DNA of 64,000 nucleotides from Patescibacteria group bacterium (GCA_022703645.1 JAKLDG010000001.1:274814-338813), one strand, 5' to 3'. Positions 15,153 to 62,210 are shown, counted from the first letter of the stretch. Program-made: numbers and translations. Notes: generated from the letters alone by a model not told the origin.

Positions 15153-15194
15153 TAAATTCATAATTCTAAATTCTAGATTCATAATTCAAACACG

Positions 15195-18094: not shown

Positions 18095-18110
18095 AAGGAG
18101 GTGAATCGTT

Positions 18111-20687: not shown

Positions 20688-20868
20688 GATGTTGGTCGGT
20701 TAATTAATATTTAATTGGGTATTGGGGATTAAAAAATCGATTGGGCATTGATCATTGGATATTGGTCATTATAAACTATTTTCATCTAAAATAAATAATA
20801 AATTTTGATGATTATTTTAGATGAGAGCATTTATTGCAGATCGAAATGCTCCTGTGGAAAAAAGGTTA

Positions 20869-27600: not shown

Positions 27601-28507
27601 CGGTGGTATTGCGAAGAAAGATATTACATCGGGTCTTCCTCGTGTGGAAGAGCTTCTTGAAGCGCGAACTCCAAAAGGCAAGGCTATTATTGCTGAGATC
27701 GCGGGTAAGGTTCAGATCATTGAGGATGAAAAACTAGGTGTAATGGTTCGCATTATTTCTAATCAACCAAAGAAAGATTTTATAAAAATGAAGCCAAATT
27801 TTAAGGTTTTAGTCAAAGATGGCGACAAAGTAGATGAAGGACAAGTAATAATTGAGGTTGGCAAGCAAAAGAATCTGAAAGCTCATGGCAAGGGAATGAT
27901 TCAGGTTGATAAAGAGAATAATCAAGTAGTTTTAGTTTATAATAAGAAAGAAGAAAAAGTTTATCAGATTGATCCAGATATGGAATTAATGATTGAAGAT
28001 GGGGCTGAAATTACGCTTGGTGAGCAAATTACAGAGGGTCATATTGACTTGCATCAATTGTTATCGCTACGAGATTCATTGGCAGTGAAAAAATACATTG
28101 TCCGAGAAATTCAGGCTATTTACGACTCCCAAGGTCAGTCAATTAATGATAAGCACATTGAAATTATTATCCGCCAAATGTTCTCAAAGGTAAGAGTTAT
28201 TGACTCTGTCGACAGTGAATTTATTGAAGGAGAAATAATTAGTAAAACCCAAGCGCAGCAGTATAATATAAATGCAAAAGCTAATAAGAAAAAGCCGATT
28301 GTATGGGAGGAATTATTGCTTGGTATTACAAAATCTTCGCTCAATACCGATTCTTTCTTATCAGCAGCCAGCTTCCAAGAGACAACTTCAGTTTTGATTG
28401 ATGCTGCTACGACAGGAAAGGTTGACTATCTGAGAGGATTAAAAGAAAATACCATTCTTGGTAAATTAATACCAGCCGGAACAGGGTTTCGGGGGATGAT
28501 ACAGTAA
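24650..28507 (+). CDS. rpoC: DNA-directed RNA polymerase subunit beta'
   Basis: 1285 aa with NADFDGD, Zn-binding Cys, and trigger loop. Confidence 0.95.
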   Translation: MNENLNEKMIDFDAIKISLASPEDILSWSHGEVTKPETINYRTQKPEKDGLFCERIFGPTKDWECYCGKYKKIRYKGIICDKCGVQVTRSLVRRERMGHIKLAAPVTHIWYLRSVPSRIGLYLGLSVRDLEKVVYFAGFIVSSVNEKARTKILENIKDEYETFKKEIDKEFDKKKKGLEKEVSEYIKANPGTDKKTAEGKVQNEFKQWQKEMEEKKSEMATAFDEAKIDINSIKKYSVISEGKYMDLSRKYGDFFEAGIGAEAILKLIKEINLNDLAKELEEERDKSVGQRRKKVLKRLRFIKGFQKAEIDPSWMVLTHIAVMPPDLRPMVQLDGGRFATSDINDLYRRVINRNNRLKKLQELRAPEIIQRNEKRMLQEAVDALIGNDSQRGKTNLAAGKKKYKSLSESLKGKQGRFRQNLLGKRVDYSGRSVIVVGPNLKLDECGVPKSIALELFKPFIISELIAKGFTHSAKNAAKMIDGSSPEVWDILEDVTKKYYVLLNRAPTLHRLGIQAFKVVLIEGKAIQIHPLVCSPFNADFDGDQMAIHLPLSRQAQEEARDIMVSSKNLLKPSDGSPSVTPSLDIVLGCYYITTFENGVKGEGKYFSDSSEAMLAFYRDNIHIRAKVKLKINSEVIETTIGRIIFNEIVPEELGFLNQDMDKKNLEKVISRSFKELGIEKTAVFVDDIKRIGMQYVTMSGLTLSISDMKIPEAKSMLIEEAEKKVDEIDGQYKRGLITANEKYLKNIEIWTSTKEAIEVEMLKGFDEKNPLSLMFTSKARGSRDQVSQVVAMRGLLQDTGGNIIELPVKSNFKEGLTVLEYFISSHGARKGLTDTALRTSDSGYLTRRMVDVAQEVIVSEPDCGTDEGMEFSRTELTANKESIQRRLDGRILLDDIKDKKGKVLINRGEELTPTKIEMIFASDVTNIKVRSPLNCKSAWGICQACYGRDLARGRLVKLGEAAGIIAAQSIGEPGTQLTMRTFHAGGIAKKDITSGLPRVEELLEARTPKGKAIIAEIAGKVQIIEDEKLGVMVRIISNQPKKDFIKMKPNFKVLVKDGDKVDEGQVIIEVGKQKNLKAHGKGMIQVDKENNQVVLVYNKKEEKVYQIDPDMELMIEDGAEITLGEQITEGHIDLHQLLSLRDSLAVKKYIVREIQAIYDSQGQSINDKHIEIIIRQMFSKVRVIDSVDSEFIEGEIISKTQAQQYNINAKANKKKPIVWEELLLGITKSSLNTDSFLSAASFQETTSVLIDAATTGKVDYLRGLKENTILGKLIPAGTGFRGMIQ

Positions 28508-28509
28508 GG

Positions 28510-28625
28510 GGGAATTTTCAATTTTACAATTCTCAATTTTCAATCAATGAAACAATGTATTAATGTTTGAAAATTGAATCATTGAAAATTCAATGAAAAT
28601 TGTGAATTGATAATTGGAAATTATG
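28510..28625. repeat. AT-rich imperfect palindromic element (CAATTTTCAATTG-word family), copy 1
   Basis: aattttacaattctcaattttcaatcaatg and its near-complement flank a short centre. Confidence 0.7.
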
Positions 28626-28697
28626 TTTTTTGGGTTGTAAAAGTTATTTTTTTGTGATAAACTGTCTTAGTAATATAAAATTTTAAGTTAAAACGCC

Positions 28698-29111
28698 GTG
28701 CCTACCATTAATCAATTAATACGAAAAGGAAGAAGAACACAACCAAACAAGAGTAAGGTACCTGCCTTGCTCAAGGATTTTAATTCCATAAAGAACAAAC
28801 TTATTGATAACCCAAAAGGTTCACCGCTGAAACGTGGAGTTTGTACGAAAGTTACGACAATGACCCCAAAGAAACCTAACTCAGCTTTGCGAAAAATCGC
28901 CAGAGTCAGATTATCAAATGGAATGGAAGTAACTGCTTATATTCCGGGAATCGGACATAATCTTCAGGAACACTCAGTAGTTGTCATCCGAGGTGGTAGA
29001 GTAAAAGATTTACCGGGTGTCCGATATCATATAGTACGCGGAATGTTGGATGCCGGAGGAGTAGATAAGAGGAAACAAGGCAGAAGTAGATACGGCGCAA
29101 AAAAGAGTTAA
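28698..29111 (+). CDS. rpsL: 30S ribosomal protein S12
   Basis: [10 protein letters not shown]...[13 protein letters not shown] start. Confidence 0.95.
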
Positions 29112-29153
29112 AAGTTTAAAGTGAAAAGTTAAAAATAATAATTCTAAGAATAT

Positions 29154-29630
29154 ATGCCTAGAGGTAACCGCAAGGTACATCGTCATGATCCAAAACCAGA
29201 TCCAAAATTCGGTTCTGCGATTATTGGTAAATTCATAAACAATCTTATGTGGGCTGGAAAGAAATCCACAGCCACATCATTAGTCTATGATGCTTTTGAT
29301 ATAATAGAGAAAAAAACCGGTAAAAAAGGTTTGGATATTTTCAATAAAGCTATCGCAAATGTTTCGCCAACTCTAAAGGTTCGCTCCAGAAGAATCGGTG
29401 GCGCAAACTACCAGATTCCGATGGAAGTGAAAAAAGATCAGAAAATAGTATTTGCTACGAAATGGATAATTGAGGCTGTCAGAGCGAAAAAAGGCAGATC
29501 TACACCTGAAGAATTGGCAGAAGAGCTGATGTTAGCAGCTGAAAATCAAGGTGCTGCAATGAAGAAAAAAGAAGATACGCATAGAATGGCAGAGGCAAAC
29601 AGAGCATACGCTCACTACGCGAAATTTTAA
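29154..29630 (+). CDS. rpsG: 30S ribosomal protein S7
   Basis: MPRGNRKV... Confidence 0.95.
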   Translation: MPRGNRKVHRHDPKPDPKFGSAIIGKFINNLMWAGKKSTATSLVYDAFDIIEKKTGKKGLDIFNKAIANVSPTLKVRSRRIGGANYQIPMEVKKDQKIVFATKWIIEAVRAKKGRSTPEELAEELMLAAENQGAAMKKKEDTHRMAEANRAYAHYAKF

Positions 29631-29640
29631 TATGATATCC

Positions 29641-29668
29641 GTAGGGGCGAAGTGTCTTCGCCCAAAAA
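29641..29668 (+). terminator. REP-like GTAGGGGCG hairpin terminator after rpsG
   Basis: gtaggggcgaagtgtcttcgccc. Confidence 0.5.
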
Positions 29669-29876
29669 TGAATTTGTTTAAAGGTTAGCTCCGAGTAATG
29701 TCGGAGCCCTTTTAATATTCCCCTAAAATTTCCATTGAAAATTAAAAAATAAAGAATATAATGGGAAATGATCCAAAGTGAGAAAGTTTGGACACGTTCA
29801 TTAAAAACGTATCTTGCTTACTCAAAGGGCAGATTTTATATTTGATCTTTCAAAAACATCGAAAGGAGAGCCATTT

Positions 29877-30584
29877 ATGTCTAAAAAAGATGGAGAGGTT
29901 TTTAGTGTTATTGAATATTACATAAAAAATCATAATCCAGATTATTCCTGCGACCAGTCGCTAAAAAATTGGATTAAATGCAAAGAGAAGATTACTCAAA
30001 AAATTACTATTCCTGACCACACGATTATTCATGACCGGAATCACAAAGAGATCTGTCGCCCTTACCGATTTTCCCTCACACCTCTCGAAAGGTCGGGGGA
30101 GAATTTCCGTTATTATTGTCGGGTACTTACGATTTGGATAAAGGAAAAAATCGAAAATACTGGCGCCAAACCGAATATATTGATCGCTATGGGAGGAGCA
30201 AATATTTTTGCAAAGCAACTGCTTCTTTACCTAGGTCAATATGGCATTTTTTTGGAGTTCGGTAGTATTAAGATGAATCGGGTAGTTTCAGGTGGAGAAA
30301 TGACCATGGAATACGATTCCAACCATTACATACCGGATTTCGATCCCGGGAAGTTCAACGCCTTTATTATCGAAGATTTTCTTAATACGGGTTTATCGGT
30401 GGATACTGCGATTAAAAGAGTTCGCTGCGATAGAACCAAAGTTCTGGGTGTTATTGCCTTTACGAATTCTTACCGGAAGTGTTGGCCTTTCGATGTTCCT
30501 ATCAACATTTCTTTTCTCGAACTGCCTTTCGAGAAATTTCCAGCAGGTACCTGTCCCGAACATTGTCAGAAAATAAGTGGGTAG
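29877..30584 (+). CDS. Phosphoribosyltransferase-domain protein inserted between rpsG and fusA
   Basis: PRTase-like motif AFIIEDFLNTGLSVDTAI. ATG at 29877 after gaaaggagag. Its own terminator is at 30613-30645. Confidence 0.45.
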   Translation: MSKKDGEVFSVIEYYIKNHNPDYSCDQSLKNWIKCKEKITQKITIPDHTIIHDRNHKEICRPYRFSLTPLERSGENFRYYCRVLTIWIKEKIENTGAKPNILIAMGGANIFAKQLLLYLGQYGIFLEFGSIKMNRVVSGGEMTMEYDSNHYIPDFDPGKFNAFIIEDFLNTGLSVDTAIKRVRCDRTKVLGVIAFTNSYRKCWPFDVPINISFLELPFEKFPAGTCPEHCQKISG

Positions 30585-30721
30585 GTTGCAGACGATCAAG
30601 AATCAAAAAATTTCATCCGGGGCATTGCGCCCCGGGTTTTTTATTTTATAAAGTCCTTGCAGTTGTCGGCAGGATTATATATAATTATTTAGCAACACGA
30701 AAAAGTGTGTTATTTTTCTTT

Positions 30722-30852
30722 TTGTTTAATAGAATTTTCAATTTACAATTTCCAGTTTTCAATAAATTTTCAATTTTTCAATGTTTCAAAATTGTGAATT
30801 GATTCATTGGTTCATTGATTGAAAATTGAGAATTGAAAATTGTAAATTATTT
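30722..30852. repeat. AT-rich palindromic element (CAATTTTCAATTG family), copy 2
   Basis: The right arm cattgattgaaaattgagaattgaaaattgtaaatt is the reverse complement of the copy-1 left arm. Confidence 0.7.
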
Positions 30853-30887
30853 TTTTGATTAATAATAATTAAGAGTAAAAAACAAAT

Positions 30888-32984
30888 ATGACAGACGAAA
30901 TTAAGTATCCCTTAGACAAAGTTCGTAACTTTGGAACAATCGCGCATATTGACGCGGGCAAAACTACTGTAACGGAAGGCATTCTTTATATTACCGGAAA
31001 AAAACACAAAATCGGAGCTGTGCACGAAGGCGAAGCGACGATGGACTGGATGGAGCAAGAAAGAGAACGCGGTATCACGATCACTTCTGCTGCTACCACG
31101 GCTTTTTGGAAAGATTGTCGGCTCAATATTATCGACACTCCCGGACACGTGGACTTTACGGTAGAAGTAGAAAGATCACTTCGCGTTCTTGATGGAGCTG
31201 TGGTTATATTTGATGGGAAAATGGGAGTAGAACCGCAATCAGAAACTGTTTGGAGGCAAGCAGATAAATACAATGTTCCAAGAATTTGTTTCATTAATAA
31301 AATCAATCAAACTGGCGGAGATTTTTACCGATCACTCGAAAGTATTAATAAAAGACTTCGCAAAAATGCTTTACCAATTCAGCTGCCTATCGGTTTCGAA
31401 AAAGACATCAATGGAATTGTGGACTTGGTAAAAATGAAAGCGTATACATATAAAGAATATACCGATAAAGCATTAGTTGAAGGCGAAATTCCTGCTGATA
31501 TGATGGAAAAAGCAAAAGAATACCGCAGTAAATTAGTTGAAAAAGCGGTTGAATATGATGAAGCTTTAATGGAAAAATATCTTGGCGGAACAGAGCCAAC
31601 AGAAGAAGAATTGGTTTCTGCGATCCGAAAAGCAACTATTTCCGGAGGATTTTCACCGGTAATGGGAGGAGATGGACGCGGGGTAATTGTAGAACCATTG
31701 CTTGATGCTGTTGTAGCATATCTGCCTTCACCTTTGGATAAACCGCCAGTAACTGGTACTAATCCAAAAACAGGCGAGGAAATAGAAAGGCATGCAGACG
31801 AAAAAGAACCATTTGCGGCTTTGGCATTCAAAATTGCTACCGATCCATTTGTGGGAAAACTTTGTTTCTTCCGTGTTTACTCTGGAAAATTAGCTGCCGG
31901 TTCTTATGTATATAATTCTACCAAGGGGGAGAGAGAAAGAATTGGAAGAATTGTACGAATGCACGCCGCCCAACGTGAAGATGTTGCTGAAGTTACTGCG
32001 GGTGAAATCGCAGCTGCGGTGGGGCTCAAATCAACATTTACGGGCGATACACTTTGCGATGAAGCTAATCCAATAATTTTGGAAAATATCACATTTCCAA
32101 CACCGGTTATTTCAGTTGCCATTGAGCCAAAGACCAAAGCAGACCAGGAAAAATTGGGATTAGCTCTTGCAAAATTAGGTGAAGAAGATCCAACTTTCAA
32201 AATTCATACAGATGAAGATACGGGTGAGACAATTATCTCAGGCATGGGAGAATTACACCTTGAAATTCTAGTAGATCGTATGAAAAGAGAATTCAAAGTG
32301 GAAGCCAATGTTGGCAAACCACAAGTAGCTTATAAAGAAGCAATCCGCAAAGCTGTTGAGTGCGAAGGTAAATTTATTCGTCAATCAGGTGGTCGCGGAC
32401 AATATGGTCACGTATTACTAAAACTTGAACCTCTTGAAAGAGGAAAGGGTTTTGAATTCGTTAATGCAATCGTTGGTGGAACGGTTCCAAGAGAATATAT
32501 CGCTCCAAGTGAAAAGGGTATCAAGGAAGCTATGGATCGCGGTGTTATCGCCGGCTATCCGGTTATTGATGTAAAAGCGACTTTATACGACGGTTCGTTC
32601 CACGAAGTTGACTCTTCTGAGATGGCGTTCAAAATCGCAGCTTCTATGGCGTTCCAAGATGGTGTGAAAAAAGCTGATCCCGTAATACTTGAGCCGATCA
32701 TGAAAGTAGAAGTATTAGTGCCGGAAGACTTCTTGGGAGATGTAATGGGGGACTTGAACGCGAAACGCGGTCAAATCCTTGAGTCCGGTGACAAAGGCGA
32801 AATTAAATTTGTCGATGCATATGTACCACTATCAGAAATGTTTGGTTATACGACAAATCTTCGTTCAATGAGTCAAGGACGAGCCAGCGCGGTAATGGAA
32901 TTTGATCACTATGGCGAAGTACCTCGCAATGTTGCGGAAACGATTATTGGCATCAGGGCAAAGGCAAAGGCGGAAGGGAGATAA
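30888..32984 (+). CDS. fusA: Elongation factor G
   Basis: [17 protein letters not shown], 698 aa. Confidence 0.95.
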
Positions 32985-32990
32985 ATAATT

Positions 32991-33020
32991 GTAGGGGCGA
33001 GCCGTTGGCTCGCCCCTTTT
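32991..33020 (+). terminator. REP-like GTAGGGGCGAGCC hairpin terminator after fusA
   Basis: gtaggggcgagccgttggctcgcccctttt. A second terminator is at 33033-33058. Confidence 0.6.
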
Positions 33021-33273
33021 AAATAAAAATAATAAAACCGCTGTTGTCAGCGGTTTTAGAATAACGTCAGTCTAAAAAATTATACAATCCTAAATCCTTT
33101 AGCACCTTTTAATCTCAGTGTTGCTGGGTCGATTTTGAACTTAATTGCGTCTTAATAATTATAAATATGTATAGCTAAATTATACCAAAATGGCTTAAAT
33201 AAGTCAATAAATTTATTAATCACTTAACTTTGAGTTCGTGTTATAATATTCTTAATACAAATAAAAAATAAAA

Positions 33274-34068
33274 ATGTCAAAAGTAAGCCGCATAAAAGCA
33301 ACAAAAAATCTTAAAAAAGATATTAAATCGGCAGTTGATGAGATTGGGGGATTTTCAAAATTTATAAAAAAGGGCGACGCGGTTCTGATTAAACCAAATT
33401 TTAATACTGCCGATCCGCCGCCGGCTTCGACAGATGTTGATTTTCTAAGACATGTTGTGGAACTAGTTTATGATGCTGGAGCAAAGGCGGTTATAGTTGG
33501 GGATTCATCAACTATGATGTTAAATACTCGCAAAGTAATGGAAGAGAAAAAAGTTTTTGATCTCGATAAAAACATGAAATATCCGCCTCGAATAATTGTT
33601 TTTGAAGAGCGGAAATGGAATGTCAAAAAAATCAAGAACGGAAAATATCTGAAAACCATTTCGGTTCCGGAGTCACTCGAAAAAGTTGATAAGTTGATAC
33701 TGCTGCCTTGCTGCAAAACGCATATGTATGCGGGCTATACCGGGGCTTTGAAAATTTCAGTTGGATTTATGAAGCCAGTAGAAAGAGTTAGGCTCCATAT
33801 GGGGCATCTGCAGGAGAAAGTTGCGGAATTGAATACCGTGATTCATCCGGATCTGATTATAATGGATGCCAGGAAATGTTTTATCACCAAAGGTCCTGCA
33901 AAAGGTGAGGTGAGAGAACCGGGTTTGATATTCGCTTCAACCAGCCGAGTAGATATTGACATAGAAGGAATCAAAACTATTCAAAAATATGAGGGCAATT
34001 CATTAGCAGGAATAAAACCGGAAGAATTAACTCAGATTAAATTGGCAAAGAAAATCGGTATAAAATAA
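33274..34068 (+). CDS. DUF362-family protein
   Basis: KGDAVLIKPNFN. Confidence 0.45.
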   Translation: MSKVSRIKATKNLKKDIKSAVDEIGGFSKFIKKGDAVLIKPNFNTADPPPASTDVDFLRHVVELVYDAGAKAVIVGDSSTMMLNTRKVMEEKKVFDLDKNMKYPPRIIVFEERKWNVKKIKNGKYLKTISVPESLEKVDKLILLPCCKTHMYAGYTGALKISVGFMKPVERVRLHMGHLQEKVAELNTVIHPDLIIMDARKCFITKGPAKGEVREPGLIFASTSRVDIDIEGIKTIQKYEGNSLAGIKPEELTQIKLAKKIGIK

Positions 34069-34146
34069 ATCTTGAAAATAAAAACCCCGCATAAACTGCG
34101 GGGGTTTAGTTTTTAGATTTATAGATCATTTTATGGTAAATAGTTA

Positions 34147-34593
34147 TCAGGGTAATATCGCTTTTACTAATGCATCAGCGAGCGATATTGTAGACTCCTT
34201 GTCCTTACCCCTTGATTTCAGAACAAGATAGTAGAGGGGGTATCTTACAGTTTTTCTTTTAACCATAATTGTTGTGACCACTACTCCTTTTTTGTTTCTC
34301 TCCATAATAATAAAAATATGATCGTTATTTTTGACTTTGTGGGCTTTACGGAGTGTTTCGCAAATCAGCCAGCCCTCCTTGATTCTTACTTCTGGTAAAC
34401 GTCTTTCTGCATGGCAGAAAGAAAATGATGTAAAATTTCCTGCTTGCGAAAAGTCATCTACTATTGGCACCGAGGATTTTTCCTTATTCTGAATGCAGCC
34501 AGGCAGCAATGCAAGTGAGATGATGATACAAGATGATATTAAAGTAATAGTGATAATGGTTTTCCAGTTCGGAGCGTTTTTCATACCTTTCAC
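34147..34593 (-). CDS. Hypothetical lipoprotein/membrane-anchored protein
   Basis: N-terminal hydrophobic segment ending LLPGC. Confidence 0.35.
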   Translation of the reverse strand: MKGMKNAPNWKTIITITLISSCIIISLALLPGCIQNKEKSSVPIVDDFSQAGNFTSFSFCHAERRLPEVRIKEGWLICETLRKAHKVKNNDHIFIIMERNKKGVVVTTIMVKRKTVRYPLYYLVLKSRGKDKESTISLADALVKAILP

Positions 34594-34630
34594 CTTCGTT
34601 TCTTTCTAGTAGTATCATTCTTGTGTGGAT

Positions 34631-34906
34631 TTAACGACCTTCATTCTTGCGTTCTTCGAGATAAGACTTGGCTTTTTCAAGCATTTTTCCGCATTTTTCA
34701 AAGTCGTATTTCTCGCGGCATGTTTGAACAACAACTTTCATGGTTCTTTCGCTTTTTATAAGCCGATTATAAATTATATCGGAATCATGCTTGTAGACTT
34801 TCACATTATCTCTCAGTATTACGATTGTGTGTCTCTGCGAATTTAGCACAAAACCTGTTGTTATGCAAAAAACGCAAATAATTGCATAGTACCATTTCGT
34901 GTTCAT
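34631..34906 (-). CDS. Hypothetical small membrane protein
   Basis: ORF with an N-terminal hydrophobic helix. Confidence 0.3.
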   Translation of the reverse strand: MNTKWYYAIICVFCITTGFVLNSQRHTIVILRDNVKVYKHDSDIIYNRLIKSERTMKVVVQTCREKYDFEKCGKMLEKAKSYLEERKNEGR

Positions 34907-35029
34907 TTCTTTCCTCCTTCAATAAATTGCACGATATGTTAATGTGCTATATTAATAATAATATAAATTAACGATAGCGTCAATATTAATAATAAAAATG
35001 ATAGATATTAAACAAATAAAAAAGGAACG

Positions 35030-35278
35030 CTATGCGTTCCTTTTATTCTGCTTTATTTGTAATTCTGGAATAAGTGAAACCGGTGCATTAGTGCCGCAAT
35101 GAGGGCATCCATCTTCATTTGGTAAAAATGTAAGTCCGCACTTATTGCATTGATGCGAATCCTGTGTGATAGCTTCAGTTGCAATCATATCCAAGTGTTG
35201 TTCGATCGAAATCATGTGGCCTTTGGCAAGGGCAACCATTATCATCAATAAAACTTGATGAACCGCTGTGAACCTCAC
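35030..35278 (-). CDS. Zinc-ribbon small protein (possibly the frameshifted continuation of 35175..35393)
   Basis: CNKCG...CPHCG. Confidence 0.25.
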   Translation of the reverse strand: MRFTAVHQVLLMIMVALAKGHMISIEQHLDMIATEAITQDSHQCNKCGLTFLPNEDGCPHCGTNAPVSLIPELQIKQNKRNA

Positions 35279-35393
35279 TTACTCTCCCCGTGCTTTTCCA
35301 GCCCGGAGCTCCCATAATAACAACTACTCGCTGTCCTATCTCCAAAATTTTTCCGTTCTTATCTTTCGGAACAAAATGTCTGAATTCTACCAT
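35175..35393 (-). CDS. Hypothetical small protein with a strong RBS
   Basis: ccgaaaggagtg then ATG MVEFRHFV. It overlaps ORF 35030..35278 in another frame. Confidence 0.35.
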   Translation of the reverse strand: MVEFRHFVPKDKNGKILEIGQRVVVIMGAPGWKSTGRVSEVHSGSSSFIDDNGCPCQRPHDFDRTTLGYDCN

Positions 35394-35415
35394 GTTGAGG
35401 ATCACTCCTTTCGGA

Positions 35416-36015
35416 TTATTTTAGCAGGAATAAAACTGTATATACGGCCAATCCTAAAATGATTATACTATATATATAGTCAAAATAAAACTTTTGTAAA
35501 CCATTAGCAAGTTTAATTATTATGACAAAGGGATATAAAAATATGGCAAATGGGTTGAAACGTTGGAAAAGATGACGATTGGCTTCCATCAGTAGCACAT
35601 GCGCATCGCCATTTGAAGGGAAGCAACCCAAACTAATAGAAAAACCAAACCAAAGAGCGATAGGTATAAGGATTGCATTGTAAATAGAAAGAGGGAGAAA
35701 ACCAAAGTAAATTTTTTGAATAAACATTAACACAAATGTAAACAATCCAAAAGACAGAAGTGTTCCAAATATAAAAGGTCCGACGGAAATAAAAAATGCT
35801 TGAATAAAATTTCTTGGTTGGGCATGCTCGACATAACCGGCGGGATTTTTGAGCTGAAAATATTTTACTTTAAAAACTTTAACATTTGATAACACGCAAA
35901 AAAGCTCATGAGAAAATTCATGAATGATTATGCCGGGTGCGGAGAAGATGATGTTGGCGATAAATGCGCCGCGTTGTTTCATGGGAATATTATACACCAA
36001 ATTTTCAATTTTCAA
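35416..36015 (-). CDS. Membrane protein with a HEXXH motif (putative zincin-like peptidase)
   Basis: IIHEFSHELF plus several TM helices. Confidence 0.4.
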   Translation of the reverse strand: MKIENLVYNIPMKQRGAFIANIIFSAPGIIIHEFSHELFCVLSNVKVFKVKYFQLKNPAGYVEHAQPRNFIQAFFISVGPFIFGTLLSFGLFTFVLMFIQKIYFGFLPLSIYNAILIPIALWFGFSISLGCFPSNGDAHVLLMEANRHLFQRFNPFAIFLYPFVIIIKLANGLQKFYFDYIYSIIILGLAVYTVLFLLK

Positions 36016-36118
36016 TTCTCAATTTCCATTGAATTTTCAATGATTCAATTTTGAAAATTTAATAATTGTGTCATTGATTGAAAATTGTAAATTGCAAAAT
36101 TGAAAATTTCTAAAAAAA
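36000..36118. repeat. AT-rich palindromic element (CAATTTTCAATTG family), copy 3
   Basis: ttttcaattctcaatttccattgaattttcaatgattcaattttgaaaa. Confidence 0.7.
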
Positions 36119-36268
36119 CCTCTTGCATCATTTCTAAATCTATTATAGAATGTATATCAGCTGTGTAAAAAACAGTCGTTACTTTTTTGTAGCGAGTTTA
36201 TATATTATAAATATAGTAAAATAAAACAATAATTTTTGCCCACAACTTTTGGGCAGGGAGGAAACAAA

Positions 36269-37471
36269 ATGGCAGCAGAAAAATTTGAAAGAACCAAACC
36301 GCATTTAAATGTGGGAACAATCGGTCACGTTGATCACGGTAAAACAACATTAACCGCAGCTATTACAAAATGTTTAGCTGGTTCAGGACAAAAAGTAGAA
36401 GTAAAAGGCTACGATGCTATTGATAATGCACCGGAAGAAAAAGCTCGTGGTATTACTATTAATACTGCTCACGTAGAATATGAAACAGCTGACAGGCACT
36501 ATGCTCACGTTGACTGTCCAGGACATGCTGACTATATCAAGAACATGATTACTGGCGCGGCTCAAATGGACGGCGCAGTTCTAGTAGTTGCAGCATCTGA
36601 TGGACCGATGCCACAGACCAGAGAGCATATCGTACTTGCCCGAAACGTTGGCGTACCATATATAGTAGTATTCTTGAACAAGACTGACCAAGTATCTGAT
36701 CCAGAATTAGTTGACTTGGTAGAGGAAGAAGTAAGAGATCTTTTAACAAAATATGAATTCCCTGGTAAAGACACGCCAATTATCAGAGGTTCAGCTTTGA
36801 AGGCATTGGAATGCGGTTGTGGTAAGAGCGATTGTCCAGCTTGTGGACCAATCCTTGAGCTAACTGCAGCGCTTGACACATATATTCCAGAGCCAACTCG
36901 CGATATTGACAAACCATTTCTGATGGCAGTAGAAGATGTTTTCTCCATCAAAGGCAGAGGAACGGTGGCTACCGGTAGAATTGATCGCGGTATTGTAAAG
37001 GTAAATGAAGAAGTTGAAATAGTTGGTATCAAACCAACCAAGAAAACCGTTGTTACTGGAGTGGAAATGTTCCGAAAAATGCTAGATCAAGGTCAGGCTG
37101 GTGATAATGTAGGAGTACTCTTAAGAGGTATTGAAAAAGAAGATATTGAAAGAGGACAAGTTCTATGCAAACCAGGTTCAATTACCCCACATACAGAATT
37201 CGAAGGACAAGTGTATATTCTAACCAAAGAAGAAGGTGGAAGACATACTCCATTCTTCAAAGGATACAAGCCACAATTCTATATCCGAACCACAGATGTG
37301 ACCGGTGATGTTGAAATCCCAGAAGGTACAGAGATGGTAATGCCAGGGGACACAGTAACTTTGAAGACAAAATTGATTGTACCAGTAGCTATGGAAGAAG
37401 GAATGAGATTCGCTATCCGTGAGGGTGGCAGAACTGTAGGAGCTGGAACCGTAACAAAAATTATCAAATAA
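36269..37471 (+). CDS. tuf: Elongation factor Tu
   Basis: [13 protein letters not shown] at 36269 after ggagg. Confidence 0.95.
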
Positions 37472-37473
37472 AG

Positions 37474-37845
37474 ATGCCAACAAAAGCAAAAGCAGAAGTT
37501 AAAAAATCAACAACAGTTGCTAAGCCGGTAAAGAAAGAGGAAAAGCAAAGAATCAGACTAAAACTAAAATCTTATGATCATAAGGTTTTGGATCAGTCCG
37601 CTGCTCAAATCCTAGAAACCGTGAAAAGAACAGGAGCAAAGCTTGCAGGTCCTATTCCCTTACCAACTGAAAGAAGTCTATTTTCTGTTTTGAAATCTAC
37701 TTTTGTACACAAAAATGCACAAGAGCAGTTTGCTTTAAGAATTCACAAGAGATTAATTGATATATTTGAACCATCGCAGAAGACAATCGACTCTTTAATG
37801 AGTTTAAATCTTCCGGCCGGAGTTGATATCGAGATTAAAATGTAA
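37474..37845 (+). CDS. rpsJ: 30S ribosomal protein S10 with a Lys-rich N-terminal extension
   Basis: [18 protein letters not shown]. Confidence 0.9.
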
Positions 37846-37990
37846 TGTAAGGGCTTATTGCATAAGCCCAATAAAGATTAAAATATAGTTAATTTATTTA
37901 AGCCCGTCAATACGATTGGCGGAAACAAATAAATTCATAGGTAACCGGCAAAACTGGTTGAAATGGATTTATGCCGGTTATTTTATTTAA

Positions 37991-38605
37991 ATGATAACAA
38001 TGTCAAAATTTATACTTGGGAAAAAAATTGGAATGACTTCTATAATCAACGAGGACGGCAATCTCGTTCCTGTTACTGTTATAGAGGCTGGTCCATGTGT
38101 AGTTACTCAAGTAAAGGGAGTTGAAAAAGACGGTTATAAAGCATTGCAGATTGGTATTGGTACGGAAAAAAAGCCAAATAAACCATTAACTGGTCATACA
38201 AAGAAATCTGGGGTAGCTTCCAAAACATTAAAAGAGTTCAGAATCGGTGATGATATTGAAATGAAGGAAGGCGATATAGTTGATGTTTCAATCTTTGAAA
38301 AGGGAGAAAAGGTAAAAATCGCCGGAAATATTAAAGCAAAAGGATTCCAAGGCGGAATAAAAAGATGGGGGTTCAAGAGTCATCCAGCCGGTCATGGTCA
38401 TCCGCAGCAGCGCAGAGTTGGTTCAATTGGTTCAGGATACCCACAACATGTATTCAAAGGTAAAAAAATGCCAGGCAGATGTGGCCCAGATCGCAAGACT
38501 ATTCTTGGGCTTACGATTGTCGATGTAGATGTAAAAAACAATCTTTTATTAGTTAAGGGTTCAGTCCCAGGAGTAAAAGGAAGACTGTTGGAGATAAGGG
38601 GATAA
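37991..38605 (+). CDS. rplC: 50S ribosomal protein L3
   Basis: GKKIGMTSI... Confidence 0.9.
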   Translation: MITMSKFILGKKIGMTSIINEDGNLVPVTVIEAGPCVVTQVKGVEKDGYKALQIGIGTEKKPNKPLTGHTKKSGVASKTLKEFRIGDDIEMKEGDIVDVSIFEKGEKVKIAGNIKAKGFQGGIKRWGFKSHPAGHGHPQQRRVGSIGSGYPQHVFKGKKMPGRCGPDRKTILGLTIVDVDVKNNLLLVKGSVPGVKGRLLEIRG

Positions 38606-38722
38606 TAATTTTACAATTTTCAGTTTTCAATTTTCATTGTAGGTATCGCTTCGCGATGGATTTAATTGAGAATTATAACATTGTAAAATTGATTGGAAAT
38701 TGAAAATTGATAATTGAAAATT
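38606..38722. repeat. AT-rich palindromic element (CAATTTTCAATTG family), copy 4, between rplC and rplD
   Basis: ttttacaattttcagttttcaattttcattg ... tggaaattgaaaattgataattgaaaatt. Confidence 0.7.
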
Positions 38723-38723
38723 T

Positions 38724-39428
38724 ATGAATAATATAAATGTAGTAACAACCAGCGGAGAGTCAAAAGACTCGATTAGCTTAAAAAAAGTCAAGAAGGTATC
38801 TTCTGCTATGATTTCAGCTACGGTTTTGGCGAACCTTTCAAATAAAAGAACAGCTATTGCTCATACCAAGACAAAGGGCGAAGTAAGAGGCGGCGGCAAG
38901 AAACCTTATCGCCAAAAAGGTACAGGACGTGCTCGAGCTGGTTCAAATAGATCACCTTTATGGATTGGTGGAGGAACAACATTTGGTCCTAGGAGCAACC
39001 GTAATTTTTATAAAAGAGTTAATAAAAAGCAAAAGACAGCAGTATTATTACATTTAATTAATCAAAAAGCTGAAAGTGGAAATCTTAAAATAGTAGATGA
39101 AATCAAACTTGTACAGCCAAAAACCAAAGAAATGATAAGATTTTTATCTGCTTTGGGAATTAACGATAGTGCGCTTTTGGTTATTGATGATGCTTTTTCA
39201 AATTCTCCCGAAAGCACATTTGTTTATGTTGCCGGAAGAAATATTAGCTTTTTGCATATTACTTCCCTACAAAAAGCAAGTTCATTTATGATAATGAAGC
39301 ATAAATGGCTTATTATGACAAAAAAAGCAGTAGAAGACCTGAATAATAAAGTGATAGAGAAAGTTGAAATTGAAGTAAAAAAGCCAGTAAAGAAAACGGC
39401 AAAAAAAGAAGAAGTAAAAGCAGAATAA
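38724..39428 (+). CDS. rplD: 50S ribosomal protein L4
   Basis: [20 protein letters not shown]. Confidence 0.9.
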
Positions 39429-39442
39429 TTTAATATAGACGT

Positions 39443-39784
39443 ATGAAATTTGATAAGTTAATTATACATCCATTGGTTACAGAGAAATCGGCTATTGCGG
39501 AAAGCAAGGGCAAGTATTTTTTTAAAGTTGAGAAAAACTCAAACAAGATTGAGGTCAAAAAAGCGGTTGAAAAGATATTTGGAGTTAAGGTAGCGGATGT
39601 AAATATTATAAATACAAGATCAAAGACCAAAAGAAGAGGTAGAATATTCGGGACAGTCGGCGGTTTCAAAAAAGCGTTAGTAACCTTGAAAAAAGGTCAA
39701 TCAATCAAATTACGCGAAGAGAAGAAGGAAGAGAAGAAGGCGAAGACGAAAGTTAAAGAGGAAAAAGCAGAAACAAAAGAGTAA
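39443..39784 (+). CDS. rplW: 50S ribosomal protein L23
   Basis: LIIHPLVTEKS. Confidence 0.9.
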   Translation: MKFDKLIIHPLVTEKSAIAESKGKYFFKVEKNSNKIEVKKAVEKIFGVKVADVNIINTRSKTKRRGRIFGTVGGFKKALVTLKKGQSIKLREEKKEEKKAKTKVKEEKAETKE

Positions 39785-39900
39785 ATATCCAATATTCAAT
39801 AACCAATACTCAATCAATACCCAATATGAAGAAATACCCAATTGAATTGCGAATTGAAAATTGATTGGAAATTGAGAATTGGTCATTGGGTATTATAACG
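39785..39900. repeat. AT-rich palindromic element (CAAT-word family variant), copy 5, between rplW and rplB
   Basis: Left arm ccaatattcaataaccaatactcaatcaatacccaat; right arm caattgaattgcgaattgaaaattgattggaaattgagaattggtcattggg. Confidence 0.6.
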
Positions 39901-39953
39901 GTTTAAATAACAAAAGATAATAGTTCAGTTAGAATAATTTAAGTCAAAACGAT

Positions 39954-40793
39954 ATGGCAGTTAAACACCAAAAACCTACAACCCCCGGACGAAGGCAAAT
40001 GATAATTGCTGATTTTTCGCATTTGACAAAGAAAAAACCAGAAAAAGCGCTATTATCAAAGAGAAAACAAAACGCCGGACGCGGTCATGGTGGTCAGATT
40101 ACGGTAAGACATCGCGGCGGCGGAGCAAAAAGAAAGCTCAGAACAATAGACTGGAAGCAAGATAAGATGAATGTTTCGGGACGCGTTGCTGCGCTTGAGT
40201 ATGATCCAGGCAGAACCGCATATATAATGTTGGTTAATTATAAAGATGGCGATAAGAGATACTTGCTTGCGCCAGAAGGAATCAAAGTAGGTGATGAGGT
40301 TGTTTCTTCGCCAAAAGCTCCAATAAAAACTGGAAATAGAGCAAAATTGGGTCATATACCAACTGGAATTCCGATTTTTAACATAGAATTAAGTATTGGT
40401 AAAGGCGGACAGATCATTCGAAGCGCTGGCGGTAAGGCATTAATAATGGCAAAAGAAGGCGATTGGGTTACTGTAAAACTGCCATCATCAGAAATACGAA
40501 AAATCCACAAAAACTGTTTTGCAACAATTGGTTCAGTCAGCAATACAGAACATAACCTGATATCTATTGGTAAGGCGGGAAGAAATAGATGGAAAGGTAT
40601 CCGACCAACAGTAAGAGGATCTGTAATGAACCCGGTTGATCACCCACACGGTGGTGGTGAAGGTAAAGCACCAGTAGGTATCAAAAAGGGTCCAAAGACT
40701 CCATGGGGCAAGAAAGCATTGGGAGTTAAGACTCGACGCAAGAAGAAATATAGTAATCAGTTTATAGTAAATAGAAGAAGTAAGAATAAATAA
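39954..40793 (+). CDS. rplB: 50S ribosomal protein L2
   Basis: HPHGGGEGK. Confidence 0.95.
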
Positions 40794-42293: not shown

Positions 42294-42698
42294 ATGTTAA
42301 TGCCGAAGAAAGTAAAATACAGAAGACAGTTCAGCCCAAAGATTAGAGCAGTTACGACTCGTGGAGCTACTCTTTCATTTGGCAAATACGGTTTAAAATC
42401 ACAAGAAGAAGGTTATATTACGGCACGACAAATCGAGGCGGGTAGACGCGCAATAACGAGATTTATCGCCCGTGGCGGGAAACTATGGATTCGAATATTC
42501 CCAGATAGACCAAAAACCAAGCATGCGGCAGAAGCGCCAATGGGTTCAGGAAAGGGTTCGCTAGATCATTTCGTAGCAAATGTAGAAGCAGGTAGAATAC
42601 TATTTGAGCTTGATGGAATACCGCTCGATACAGCAAAAGAAGCATTAAGACTAGCAGCTCAAAAAATGTCTGTAAAGACTAAGTTTATTCACAAATAA
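42294..42698 (+). CDS. rplP: 50S ribosomal protein L16
   Basis: MLMPKKVKYRR. Confidence 0.95.
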   Translation: MLMPKKVKYRRQFSPKIRAVTTRGATLSFGKYGLKSQEEGYITARQIEAGRRAITRFIARGGKLWIRIFPDRPKTKHAAEAPMGSGKGSLDHFVANVEAGRILFELDGIPLDTAKEALRLAAQKMSVKTKFIHK

Positions 42699-42735
42699 GC
42701 AATTAAGCAAAAAATCAAGAAAACAATAAATCAAT

Positions 42736-42957: not shown

Positions 42958-43049
42958 TAATTTCTCAATTAATCCCCAATTTCTCAATTTCAAAACCATT
43001 TAGAAATTAAGAAATTAGATATAATATTTAGGAATAATAATTTAAACGC

Positions 43050-43376: not shown

Positions 43377-43396
43377 ACAATAAATCAAGAAATCAA

Positions 43397-44113: not shown

Positions 44114-44214
44114 AATATCTAAATTATAATATCTAATATCTAAATAAATCTAAAATCAAAAATCCAGATTAGAAATTAGAGCTTAGGATTTAGAAATTTA
44201 AGGAAATAAATAAT

Positions 44215-45534: not shown

Positions 45535-45574
45535 ACAATTAAACAAGAAATCAATAAAACAATAAAGCAAAACT

Positions 45575-46117: not shown

Positions 46118-46153
46118 TCAATTAAACAAGAAAACAATAAACCAAGAAAACAA

Positions 46154-48350: not shown

Positions 48351-48512
48351 AAAATAGTTCTTTAATTTCTAAATTATAAATTATAAGTTCTAATTAGATA
48401 TTATTTTTTTAGACATTTTATTAGAAATTGCAATTTAGTAATTAGAAATTTAAATATTTTTGAAATTGTGATATTATACAGTTAATAAAAATTATTTAGG
48501 GAATAACTCATT

Positions 48513-49814: not shown

Positions 49815-49854
49815 GATAGCTTGTAGCTCTATTAACTTTTTAGGTAGATATTTT

Positions 49855-57580: not shown

Positions 57581-57782
57581 TTGCTTAAAAATAGATTTGA
57601 GGGTAAAATGAATACAGAATTTCTAATATCTAAATTCTAAATACTAAACAAGCGCAAATCTCAAAATTCAAAAAATAAATTTGAATTTTAGTATTATTTA
57701 GAAATTAGAGTTTGGAATTTAGGATTTTATGTTTTGGTGCAGTTAAAGTTTGGTAGAAAAATATTAATAAATTAGCGGCAAA

Positions 57783-59807: not shown

Positions 59808-62210
59808 ATGAAATTTTCATACAACTGGTTGAAACAATTAGTAGACTTTAATAAGACTCCGCAAGAATTGGCGGATGATTTAAGTTGCAAATCAATAGAA
59901 ATTGAAAATATTGAGAAATTTGGCGGGGATTTCTTGGACACTATTGTGGTTGGGCAGATTTTAGAGATTAATAAGCATCCAAACGCGGATAAACTGCAGA
60001 TAACCAAAACAGATATAGGGTCGCAAACATTGCAAATTGTCTGTGGCGCCCCAAATATTGCCGTTGGACAAAAGGTTCCGGTTGCTCTAATCGGTACAAA
60101 GCTTCCTATGGGTGAGATCAAACAGGCTAAAATTCGCGATATTGAATCATTTGGAATGCTTTGCGCTCAAGATGAATTAGGAATCGGAAACGATCATACA
60201 GGCATAATGATCCTGGATCCTGATTTACCTCTCGGTAAAAAATTATCAGAAATCTATGGTGATTGGGTTTTGGATGGGAATATTCTTTCAAATAGAGGGG
60301 ATTTACAAAACCATATGCAATTAGCAAGAGAAATCGGGGCGATATATGGAAAGGAAATTAAAGAAATTCAAAATATTGAAAATTGGAAATTGGAAATTGA
60401 GAATTCGGGTCCTGTGGATGTTCAGATTAATAATCTAGAGGCCTGCCCTTTGTATACAGCCCAGGCCATTAAAGGGATTAAGATAGGCCCGTCCCCAACA
60501 TGGATGCAGCAAAAACTTCTGGCTTGCGGGATGAAACCGATCAATAATGTCGTCGATATCACGAATTATGTGATGTTAGAATATGGCAATCCTCTGCATG
60601 CTTTTGATGCGAAGAAAATTCCAACCATAGAAACACAAGGCAATTATCCTAAAAAACATCAAATAGTTGTTCGCCTTAGCAAAAAGGGTGAAGTGATCCG
60701 AACGCTGGATGGGCAGGATCATGAGCTGCCGGAAGAGCTTTTGGTAATTGCAGACCATGAAAAACCGATTGCGGTAGCGGGCGTAATGGGCGGGGAAAAT
60801 TCTGAAATTGACGAAACCACATCAATCGTGATTTTAGAATCAGCTAATTTTAATCAGAAATACATTCGTAAATCTCAAAGAGAGCTTGGACTTGCTACGG
60901 AAGCTTCCAGCAGATTCGCGAAAGACCTTTCGCCATATCTCGCTTTCCAATGTCTGCAGCGTGCTGCAGAGCTTCTTGTTGAATTAGCCAGTGGGGAATT
61001 GATTGGCGGACCGGTTAAGGCAGGAGCATTCTCTTTTGAAAAAAGAATCGTTAAATTTGACTATGAAAAAATTAGAAACTATCTTTCAATGGATATTTCT
61101 AAAGAAGAATCTATAAAAATACTAAAAAATCTTGGATTTGAAATTGATGGAAATGATATTTCAGTGCCGCTTTGGAGAAAAGATGTAGGTATCTGGCAGG
61201 ATATTGCAGAAGAGGTCGGCAGAATTTATGGGCTCGATCGTTCAAAAGAGCACGAATTATCAATTCAAATAGAACCAAAAACTGAAAAAGCTTTATATTT
61301 TGAACAATCCGCCAAGAAATATCTTGCTTCTCTTGGCTTAACCGAGATTTATACATTGTCTATTCTATCTTCAGAAACCGCGGAAAAATCGAAGATTCTG
61401 GGACACTATTTTGAGATTTCAAACCCCATGAACGAATATGATTATATTATGAGATCATCTCTCGTTCCGGGGCTATTGGCTGTTGCATCTAATAACGCAA
61501 AGAAATTTGAACGGTTTAGTTTTTTTGAATTATCAAAAATCTATTTGCCATCCGATAAAGAAGAGGCGCCATCTAGAGAGAATAGAATGCTTTCACTCTT
61601 AGTTTACGGAGAAAAGAATGAAGATGGGATATTGATACTTAAAAACTATATCGATCATTTTGCTGGTGCTTATGGATTAAATTTTCAATACGAAAACGAT
61701 GCAAAACCAAAGGAGTTTATGCATCCCGGAAGATGCGCCAAGGTAATATATAAAGAGGAAGTGATTGGAAACATATTTGAAGTTCATCCAATTGTGTCTG
61801 AAAACCTTGATCTGAAGAATAGATGTTGCGTAGCCGAGATCAATTTTGAAGCTTTTGTTGACGATGCGCTTGACGTTGAAAACAGATTTGCCGAAGAACC
61901 ATCGGAGGTGATTTATAAAGAATTCTCCCGTTTTGAGGTTAGCAAGCGTGATATTGCCGTGGTAGTTGATGTGGGTACGAATACTATTGATATAATCAAA
62001 GAAATAAAGAACACAGACGAAAAAGTTGTCGGTGCAGAATTATTCGATGAATATGTTTCGGACAAATTTGGCGCTGGAAAAAAATCCGTAGCTTATCATC
62101 TCACTTTTCAAGCATCAGATAGAACGCTGAATGATACAGAGGCGAATGAGCTATTTGATAAAGTCTTAAAAATATTAAGTAACAAATTTAATGCAGAATT
62201 AAGGAGGTAA
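59808..62210 (+). CDS. pheT: Phenylalanine--tRNA ligase beta subunit
   Basis: 800 aa with an N-terminal tRNA-binding domain, B3/4 and B5. Confidence 0.9.
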   Translation: MKFSYNWLKQLVDFNKTPQELADDLSCKSIEIENIEKFGGDFLDTIVVGQILEINKHPNADKLQITKTDIGSQTLQIVCGAPNIAVGQKVPVALIGTKLPMGEIKQAKIRDIESFGMLCAQDELGIGNDHTGIMILDPDLPLGKKLSEIYGDWVLDGNILSNRGDLQNHMQLAREIGAIYGKEIKEIQNIENWKLEIENSGPVDVQINNLEACPLYTAQAIKGIKIGPSPTWMQQKLLACGMKPINNVVDITNYVMLEYGNPLHAFDAKKIPTIETQGNYPKKHQIVVRLSKKGEVIRTLDGQDHELPEELLVIADHEKPIAVAGVMGGENSEIDETTSIVILESANFNQKYIRKSQRELGLATEASSRFAKDLSPYLAFQCLQRAAELLVELASGELIGGPVKAGAFSFEKRIVKFDYEKIRNYLSMDISKEESIKILKNLGFEIDGNDISVPLWRKDVGIWQDIAEEVGRIYGLDRSKEHELSIQIEPKTEKALYFEQSAKKYLASLGLTEIYTLSILSSETAEKSKILGHYFEISNPMNEYDYIMRSSLVPGLLAVASNNAKKFERFSFFELSKIYLPSDKEEAPSRENRMLSLLVYGEKNEDGILILKNYIDHFAGAYGLNFQYENDAKPKEFMHPGRCAKVIYKEEVIGNIFEVHPIVSENLDLKNRCCVAEINFEAFVDDALDVENRFAEEPSEVIYKEFSRFEVSKRDIAVVVDVGTNTIDIIKEIKNTDEKVVGAELFDEYVSDKFGAGKKSVAYHLTFQASDRTLNDTEANELFDKVLKILSNKFNAELRR

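Follow-up and report, generated by a model that had tools for sequence, protein, structure and literature searches.

The 64,000-nt stretch of a Patescibacteria group bacterium genome analysed here (GCA_022703645.1 JAKLDG010000001.1:274814-338813, hereafter the window) was found to contain five imperfect palindromes of 113-120 nt, designated E1 to E5, which are mutually homologous and lie between genes of the ribosomal-protein operons. The best-supported reading of these elements, to which we assign a probability of about 0.5, is a palindromic DNA repeat of the kind represented by repetitive extragenic palindromes (REP) and MITEs (miniature inverted-repeat transposable elements), assembled from heptanucleotide simple repeats, propagated as a single piece and reshaped by slippage. 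Throughout the text, L-numbers are the labels of the contigs and loci used for comparison, L203 and L205 being the window genome beyond the window ends.

A previous sequence-only reading of the window had placed five copies in it, and all of them were confirmed to within a few bases (Table 1). Long words common to the copies in both orientations had also been claimed. Such words were indeed detected, the longest exact inverted ones measuring 25 nt for E1/E2 and 26 nt for E1/E3 with a shuffle maximum of 13, but the 30-mer quoted as an example starts at 28520 rather than at 28515 and its full reverse complement is absent. A repeat search of the window assigned the copies to the direct families D15, D17 and D18 and to the inverted pairs I1-I10. 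Global alignment scores among the copies ranged from 24 to 85, while shuffled partners scored 7-13 (maximum 25). E1 and the reverse complement of E3 were identical at 101 of 113 bases (89%), the non-periodic centre included, and the remaining pairs showed 75-86% identity. A profile built from the five copies with nhmmer re-found each of them at E = 2e-23 to 7e-21.

The predicted fold of every copy is a long imperfect hairpin with an energy of -24 to -33 kcal/mol; compared with shuffles that preserve dinucleotides, the z-scores lie between -2.8 and -5.1. Over its whole length the element is an imperfect palindrome with 40-43 Watson-Crick pairs, as expected from the terminal inverted repeats of a MITE. 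The elements have a GC content of about 23%, are strictly intergenic within the window and are all located inside 11.4 kb of the ~84 kb sampled, no additional copy being present in the 10 kb of genome on each side of the window (~20 kb of flank). RplC and RplD assigned the window to a Patescibacteria metagenome-assembled genome. Across the part of the genome that holds the elements, independent assemblies (ENA, JGI, Logan) were 100% identical, which excludes an artefact of assembly. Identical RplD was present on contigs of up to 867 kb; among the assemblies with the same proteins no strain polymorphism was observed at the E sites, and the next RplD homologue was only ~60% identical.

As for the immediate surroundings, E1 is followed on its 3' side by a T6 run and then by a promoter-like TTGTAA-17-TAAACT. 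A GC-rich terminator (30615-30637) and a promoter-like TTGCAG-17-TATAAT precede E2, with a T7 run on its 3' side. E3 lies 13 nt upstream of a putative tuf promoter, TTGCAT-17-TAGAAT, which was read from the consensus and is conserved in L001.

Table 1. Positions of the five E elements and of the other repeats and open reading frames (ORFs) discussed in the text. Positions refer to the window unless L203 is indicated; RAYT, REP-associated tyrosine transposase.
Feature	Position	Strand	Location and description	Fold energy (kcal/mol)	Fold z
E1	28511..28625		5 nt past rpoC stop (28507), 72 nt ahead of rpsL GTG start (28698)	-29.2	-3.3
E2	30731..30850		fusA leader, ends 37 nt ahead of fusA ATG (30888)	-32.9	-4.5
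E3	35998..36110		orientation opposite to E1; between minus-strand ORF (35416-35982/36015) and tuf	-29.7	-5.1
E4	38606..38723		exact fill of rplC-rplD gap: stop codon end 38605, ATG 38724	-29.0	-4.2
E5	39785..39898		directly after rplW stop (39784), ends 55 nt ahead of rplB ATG	-23.7	-2.8
CTAA/TTAG heptamer palindrome	44114..44205		between rplX and rplE		-1.6
CTAA/TTAG-type heptamer palindrome	48357..48455		between rplO and secY		-1.9
CTAA/TTAG heptamer palindrome	57615..57735				-3.8
Palindrome of AATTTCTC/GAAATTA words	42958..43040		between rpmC and rpsQ		
Palindrome	55659-55712				
ATTGGNN one-arm array	20715..20775	+	no inverted partner; divergent spacer upstream of rpoB; units like E5 right arm		
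ATTCNNN one-arm array	15153..15194	+	five heptamers, filling the gap from RAYT-like ORF to next gene		
ATTG array	60375..60405	+	4.4 units, inside pheT (59808-62210), variable linker before B3_4 domain		
RAYT-like ORF	14625-15152	+	NCBIfam REP-associated tyrosine transposase, 53-54 bits for the two ORFs, cut-off 80		
RAYT-like ORF	L203 17945-18406	-	~8 kb beyond right window end; NCBIfam match as above		
GC-rich hairpins, mostly with GTAG head (e.g. GTAGGGGCGAGCCGTTGGCTCGCCCC)	14901-14929, 29641-29663, 32991-33016, 49854-49879; L203 18192-18268				
8-nt-unit leaders	42693-42742, 43363-43412, 45529-45578, 46104-46169, 51948-51997, 53845-53894, 54844-54908				

The arms of the elements consist of four to six imperfect tandem heptamers ATTGNNA with an AATTG core. 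The left arm is read as NNNCAAT, its counterpart on the right as ATTGNNN, and the two arrays are inverted around a partly conserved centre of 25-45 nt. In 14 full-length family members, 48 of the 71 intervals between exact ATTG cores measured 7 nt. The pattern ATTG-N3-ATTG-N3-ATTG occurred 17 times in the window against 0.05 expected, all matches falling in E1-E5 except two upstream of rpoB (in a one-arm array) and two in pheT, and ATTGAAAATTG with at most one mismatch was found 39 times against 9.3 expected. The most frequent units were ATTGAAA, ATTGATA, ATTGTAA, ATTGAGA and ATTGGAA. Unit positions 1-4 and 7 carried 0.95-1.7 bits and positions 5-6 carried 0.5-0.8 bits. E5 is the most diverged copy, in which the CAAT/ATTG cores are kept at 7-nt spacing and the variable triplets of the arms are unpaired. 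In the manner of short tandemly repeated repetitive (STRR) sequences, the arms comprise at least three tandem 7-nt units above chance and are mostly intergenic. The sequence-only reading had overlooked both this organisation as heptamer simple-sequence arrays and the fact that it reflects a property of the spacers throughout the lineage.

The family was also detected in other genomes. A 21-nt degenerate right-arm word was scanned in metagenome contigs and returned at least 120 loci with a GC content of 0.24-0.66; among the matches listed, most were single (ATTGAAA)n arrays. Full-length members were identified by profile in at least nine contigs. L158 carries three copies within 1.6 kb, between rnc, nusB::NUDIX, rpmF and rnhB, and single copies occur in L196 (between GtrA and dnaX), L189 (between galT and VTT), L183, L176, L091, L179, L151 and L136. 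Inspection of the alignment by eye showed that the arms and an inner block of ~44 nt are common to the members of different genomes. In most of the foreign cases the element fills almost the entire intergenic gap, leaving 0-14 nt spare per side. With five copies in the window, three in L158 and at least eight single-copy contigs, the family displays the multiple dispersed copies and the presence/absence polymorphism of a MITE.

The order rnc-nusB::NUDIX-rpmF is common to L158 and the window genome, where the encoded NusB::NUDIX fusion occupies positions 3692-4588 of L158 and 16673-17518 of L203. Since Rnc is 56% and NusB 35% identical between the two, the ~80% DNA identity of the L158 elements cannot be due to neutral vertical descent. 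The nusB-rnc junction contains a GAAATT-word hairpin in the window genome and an E element in L158, and the rpmF-nusB gap measures 8 nt in the window genome and holds an element in L158. The element is inherited and copied as a whole unit, arm mismatches included and in either orientation. The 64 viral contigs with (ATTGAAA)n arrays contained one-arm arrays only and no full element, so that a phage vector is unsupported.

Related arrangements were observed in two further settings. In L083 a ~140-nt AT-rich heptamer hairpin ending in (ATTGAAA)4 is inserted in the 16S rRNA gene (~1440-1600), which is otherwise full-length, Rfam model positions 1-1533 being matched over 1674 nt. In contigs with a GC content of 0.60-0.66 (L105, L172, L173, L192, L147, L090), AT-rich (ATTGAAA)n ... 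(TTTCAAT)n arrays surround a GC-rich centre, in an arm order opposite to that of the window family.

The comparison of orthologous spacers, which had been proposed as a check in the sequence-only reading, was carried out on a table of 26 ribosomal-protein junctions in 13 genomes and revealed that occupancy differs among relatives. The statement that these junctions normally span a few bp proved correct, as the compact relatives L009, L021 and L027 mostly showed gaps of -1 to 20 nt. In the closest relative, L001 (RplC 80% identical), the rplC-rplD, rplW-rplB and rplB-rpsS junctions and the tuf leader hold word hairpins; these are made of tandem 6-8 nt words other than those of E, namely GCTAAAA, AAGATTAAATGATT, ACGAATW and CCGAAT. 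The rplC-rplD gap measures 118 nt in the window genome, 81 nt with other words in L001 and 2-11 nt in L005, L006 and L027, whereas rplB-rpsS spans 8 nt in the window genome and 109-132 nt in L001, L003 and L028. At these junctions the closest relatives have either hairpins of other words or spacers of -1 to 24 nt, and expansion is specific both to the junction and to the lineage. In short junctions the element occupies nearly all the space from stop to start, and is present or absent by lineage.

The 7-nt periodicity extends beyond the E family. The autocorrelation of the window spacers gave z 5.8 at lag 7 and 5.0 at lag 8, and 4.2 and 2.8 respectively when E1-E5 were removed. Among the relatives, lag-7 z-scores were 10.8 for L003, 12.0 for L028, 7.8 for L029, 6.8 for L032 and 5.9 for L004, with L002 reaching 7.7 at lag 8; no such periodicity was detected in four non-Patescibacteria control loci. 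The spacers of the relatives contain many hairpins and one-arm arrays of other words. When palindromes were defined by z >=3, at least 18 Watson-Crick pairs and stem GC <0.3 in co-directional spacers of 60-400 nt, AT-rich long palindromes were found in 33 of 83 spacers from ten Patescibacteria loci and in 0 of 24 from ten loci of other bacteria. The sharing of 11-mers within and between loci, examined with regard to genome-specific word families, gave a weak contrast (5.6% vs 2.0%), which is blurred by AT-rich low complexity. Between L029 and L032, which are 92% identical, 18 indels of 5 nt or more were counted; four of them measure 7 nt and two 14 nt, and all six lie in arrays. These indels are direct evidence for the gain and loss of whole units; the slippage characteristic of STRR sequences was thus documented for word arrays other than E.

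In the scheme that we infer, for the copying mechanism as for every effect on the mRNA, slippage of heptamers would make and remodel the arms, and copying at the DNA level would spread the unit to nearby spacers, perhaps by means of a transposase, or else by recombination between neighbouring spacers or template switching from one to the other. Among the long simple repeats of bacteria, heptamers are the unit found in excess (PMC4679880, PMC4692102). The insert would be tolerated in essential operons because, once transcribed, it would loop out in a long, imperfect, AU-rich hairpin and because it breaks no frame. RNase III cutting, protection of 3' ends, masking of a start site until the arrival of the upstream ribosome and -35-like TTGAAA boxes might then arise as by-products; such effects on the mRNA are plausible. 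A MITE-like origin had already been put forward in the sequence-only reading, and is supported by full-length homology in either orientation, by recurrence at unrelated gene pairs with ~80% identity, by variable occupancy and by clustering. The expected target-site duplication and a parent transposase with matching ends were, on the other hand, not found in the available DNA, and nothing points to the targeting of intergenic hairpins that had been suggested at the same time.

Several observations weigh against a mobile repeat of this kind. No target-site duplication or conserved target was present at the ends of 16 aligned members, although the AATT termini are self-complementary and a duplication could hide there. 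No transposase with matching ends was detected in the ~84 kb of genome or beside the copies in other contigs, and the copy number itself rests on ~84 kb of an 867-kb genome. The heptamer core is conserved above positions 5-6, and E5 loses pairing yet keeps its cores; as far as can be judged from these sequences, this hints at a constraint on the periodic core instead of neutral decay. AT-rich palindromes occur in 39 of 111 co-directional, 6 of 15 divergent and 1 of 20 convergent spacers, and their rarity in the convergent class (1/20 vs 45/126, Fisher P = 0.004), computed on crude ORF calls with at least two L158 spacers mis-classed, is not predicted by neutral insertion. Finally, the two RAYT-like ORFs go with separate GC-rich hairpins bearing a GTAG head and not with E, and RAYT was therefore ruled out as the mobiliser of the elements. 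Both ORFs are interrupted by GC-rich palindromes. This second family corresponds to the definition of REP, with a perfect 29-nt palindrome in one RAYT-like ORF and a pair in the other, and its features suggest that a REP/RAYT system may exist in a Patescibacteria genome.

If the stem of the sense transcript were under selection, G·U mismatches would be expected to exceed A·C mismatches. The two classes were equally represented: eleven hairpins of the window gave 24 vs 23, and a set of 33 hairpins gave 79 vs 81. Compensatory pairs amounted to 0, and RNAalifold run on 16 members returned invariant core pairs only, with no covariation; stem-preserving substitutions are absent. The arms of an element paired with each other worse than with foreign arms: the duplex energy was -20.5 kcal/mol for own and -25.7 kcal/mol for foreign arms, and the alignment score 17.3 against 19.3 (permutation P = 0.006). 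Arm mismatches sit in the variable unit positions, and most of the variable triplets of E5 cannot pair. An A-rich arm always facing the downstream start was also ruled out, the arm order being random (3' in 21 cases and 5' in 23). As judged by these comparisons, we found no sign of selection on the RNA stem, and the co-opted RNA structures acting in cis that the sequence-only reading had envisaged received no support from the sequence.

These data bear directly on the hypothesis that the elements are selected cis-acting RNA hairpins, serving as RNase III sites, as 3' end barriers which set the amounts of the cistrons, or as couplers that keep the next start covered until the ribosome coming from upstream opens the stem at its foot. 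Translational coupling by RNA unfolding is an established model (PMC12548453) and RNase III binds Correia elements or cleaves them (PMC2649163). The location of the hairpins, which start at a median of ~8 nt past the stop and end at a median of ~15 nt ahead of the next start, with E4 as an exact fill, would fit such a role, as would their fold z-scores, the RNase III gene that the genome carries at L203 15893-16585 and the similar insert in the 16S rRNA gene of L083. The genes following E1, E4 and E5 have no visible Shine-Dalgarno sequence and fusA after E2 shows a weak AAGAG, while some other genes have GGAGG. However, besides the parity of G·U and A·C, the lack of compensatory pairs and the poorer complementarity of own arms, E1 and E3 lie in opposite orientations, E3 is found in a divergent spacer upstream of the promoter-like site of tuf, junction occupancy varies among relatives and the order of the arms is random. 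We therefore regard selected RNA hairpins as unlikely. An intrinsic terminator or attenuator between operon segments would agree with the T runs that follow E1 and E2 and with the position of E1 at the rpoC/rpsL boundary ahead of a promoter-like site, but the stems contain less than 25% GC, no T run accompanies E3, E4 or E5, and E4 and E5 are internal to the S10 operon. Canonical GC-rich terminators occur elsewhere (30615, 33017, 34085) and the terminator scan called no E element, which makes this the most improbable of the alternatives considered.

The conservation of the cores raised the alternative of binding-site arrays, in which a core of 4-5 nt repeated every 7 nt, direct or inverted, would be recognised by an oligomeric nucleic-acid-binding protein and the hairpin would be incidental. 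Possible analogues of the binder include cold-shock/S1-type proteins, RNA binders similar to HutP or TRAP, and ribbon-helix-helix proteins of the omega-repressor kind, which act on 7-bp heptads. The information content of positions 1-4 and 7 compared with positions 5-6, the ~15 cores of E5 that stay in register despite unpaired triplets, the one-arm arrays at 20715-20775 and 15153-15194, and the sense arrays of other metagenome contigs, which end at a median of 2 nt ahead of the start of co-oriented genes, are all consistent with this hypothesis, and S1, Csp and CsrA have been proposed as binders of TAACTGA heptamer repeats (PMC4679880). Nevertheless, this genome uses several unrelated words (CAAT, CTAA, GAAATT) and its relatives yet others, which argues against a single sequence-specific binder; no candidate protein emerged and no constant spacing from promoters or start codons was observed, so that binding-site arrays seem quite unlikely. 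Very unlikely, in our opinion, is the related proposal of an operon-organising system in which, for this clade, the periodic cores and not the stems would be functional and, single or inverted, act as a general junction code for an oligomeric RNA or DNA binder, or alternatively the foot of the hairpin would join stop and start for reinitiation across a 120-nt spacer, as a stand-in for Shine-Dalgarno-led initiation in the ribosomal-protein operons. We also considered that no dispersal took place, each copy being made in place by slippage of AT-rich heptamers and the likeness being due to convergent low complexity. The more than 120 metagenome contigs and 64 viral contigs with mostly single (ATTGAAA)n arrays, the general 7-nt periodicity of spacers in the lineage and the unit-sized indels between close relatives agree with this possibility. 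The 89% identity of E1 and E3 through the non-periodic centre, the ~44-nt inner block found across genomes and the exact words of 25-26 nt oppose it, and render it highly improbable; for E1-E4, a convergent origin in place appears largely refuted by these alignments.

Searches for known RNA families gave negative results. Rfam returned 0 matches at gathering thresholds on the window and nothing relevant at E <= 1 on 28300-40100 or 1-11200, and a tRNA/tmRNA scan of the sequence detected none. Tandem interspaced guide RNA (TIGR) arrays, with their Tas systems, have been reported in these bacteria and consist of 36-nt units that contain two spacers and either edge and loop repeats or box C/D motifs, beside a gene for a Nop-domain protein (PMC12045711). 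The E arrays were ruled out as TIGR-Tas by unit length and motifs, their period being 7 nt with no 36-nt unit, and no Nop-domain protein was present among the Pfam-scanned ORFs or the called genes marked by Pfam.

In the literature we found no description of such elements in Patescibacteria. The heptanucleotide long simple-sequence repeats of other bacteria comprise the cyanobacterial STRR, the TAACTGA repeats of Beggiatoaceae, Cyanobacteria and Bacteroidetes and the GGGAATC repeats of Xanthomonas (PMC4679880, PMC4692102). Like E, they are intergenic, consist of tandem 7-nt units in which a core is conserved and other positions vary, often abut start codons, occur in ribosomal-protein operons and vary in length between relatives; TAACTGA repeats sit just upstream of start codons, ribosomal-protein operons included, and GGGAATC repeats sometimes form inverted pairs that give rise to stem-loops (PMC4679880, PMC4692102). 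In contrast, E consists of inverted arrays around a specific centre, forms a unit of 115 nt, copied in one piece and conserved from genome to genome, uses AT-rich words and resides in Patescibacteria.

REPs and bacterial interspersed mosaic elements (BIMEs), mobilised by RAYT/TnpA-REP, resemble E in that they are imperfect palindromes between genes, occur in many copies and in both orientations, are clustered and show no target-site duplication, and a RAYT-like gene in the window genome recalls their setting. REPs, however, are GC-rich sequences of 20-40 nt with a GT(A/G)G head that flank a rayt gene (PMC2817692), whereas E is 115 nt long, has ~23% GC and no GTAG head, and does not flank the RAYT-like ORFs. 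The Correia repeat enclosed elements of Neisseria and other bacterial MITEs resemble E in being hairpin-forming, co-transcribed intergenic elements of 100-150 bp with inverted ends, which may create promoter boxes and RNase III substrates (PMC2649163, PMC3184786). Correia elements are defined by 26-bp terminal inverted repeats, a TA duplication, an integration host factor (IHF) site and cleavage by RNase III; E showed no sequence similarity to the Correia element and no TA duplication at its ends. E differs from MITEs in that no target-site duplication and no recognisable parent insertion sequence were found, and in that its arms are periodic simple repeats where MITEs have unique terminal inverted repeats. 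Essential genes also tolerate the self-folding inserts known as Rickettsia palindromic elements and rRNA intervening sequences, to which the hairpin in the 16S rRNA gene of L083 is similar; E differs from the Rickettsia elements since it is strictly intergenic in the window. Whether the E family should be considered as a single non-autonomous Patescibacteria repeat family of ~115 bp, with the behaviour of REP and MITE but a different build that joins heptamer arrays with a palindromic repeat, we put at even odds.

Besides the five E elements, the window contains other word arrays (Table 1). The looser relatives listed in the sequence-only reading are real, but were placed outside the E family by nhmmer: those starting at 44114, 48357 and 57615 are CTAA/TTAG palindromes and the one at 15153-15194 is a one-arm array and no palindrome. 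The pattern TTAG-N3 repeated three times with at most one mismatch gave 8 matches against 0.59 expected, all within the palindromes at 44114 and 57615. The palindromes at 42958-43040 and 55659-55712, the array at 20715-20775 and the pheT array had been missed. Read in frame, the pheT array encodes IENWKLEIEN and aligns without gaps to solved PheT chains; an in-frame insertion of the Rickettsia-palindromic-element kind was therefore ruled out. A-rich, G-poor leaders of 8-nt units (CAANNAAN) reach the start codons of ribosomal-protein genes that have no Shine-Dalgarno sequence, and a clear GGAGG precedes some other genes (16736, 18095-18111, 53931).

The organisation of the surrounding genes was also recorded. 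The str operon is broken up by an unknown 256-aa ORF (29814-30584) between rpsG and fusA and, between fusA and tuf, by a DUF362 gene with four small minus-strand ORFs (33274-35982), the operon segments each having their own terminators and promoter-like sites. In the spc operon a 170-aa ORF (46539-47051) separates rplR from rpsE; it has no Pfam domain, shows a weak match to the MAG1140 family and has an apparent counterpart in L002. A HaeIII-type restriction-modification pair, comprising a C-5 cytosine methylase (E 9e-98) and an RE_HaeIII endonuclease (E 5e-97), is encoded on the minus strand at 11550-13534. Positions 1-11100, continuing into L205 2097-20518, are occupied by dense repeat modules of 100-330 nt with 82-99% identity (families D1-D20), interleaved with small ORFs in both orientations that encode a methyltransferase, a DHO_dh-like protein, a 2'-5' RNA ligase, an AAA_15/21 ATPase and many unknowns, with no Rfam match.

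The genomes of Patescibacteria are among the smallest and most tightly packed of bacteria, yet among the co-directional spacers of 60-400 nt that lie within or near the most conserved operons of this clade, about 40% hold long AT-rich palindromes made of heptamer words, one such palindrome family being common to distant lineages. In practical terms, repeats of this type break assemblies and mislead gene callers, as shown by the start codons called inside E3, and they can be used as lineage markers. Should the elements be selfish, even streamlined genomes would harbour repeats that proliferate, and it would be self-folding that lets a coupling junction tolerate an insert. Should they be functional, they would point to an undescribed mode of processing or translation of polycistronic mRNA in a phylum that is not yet genetically tractable.

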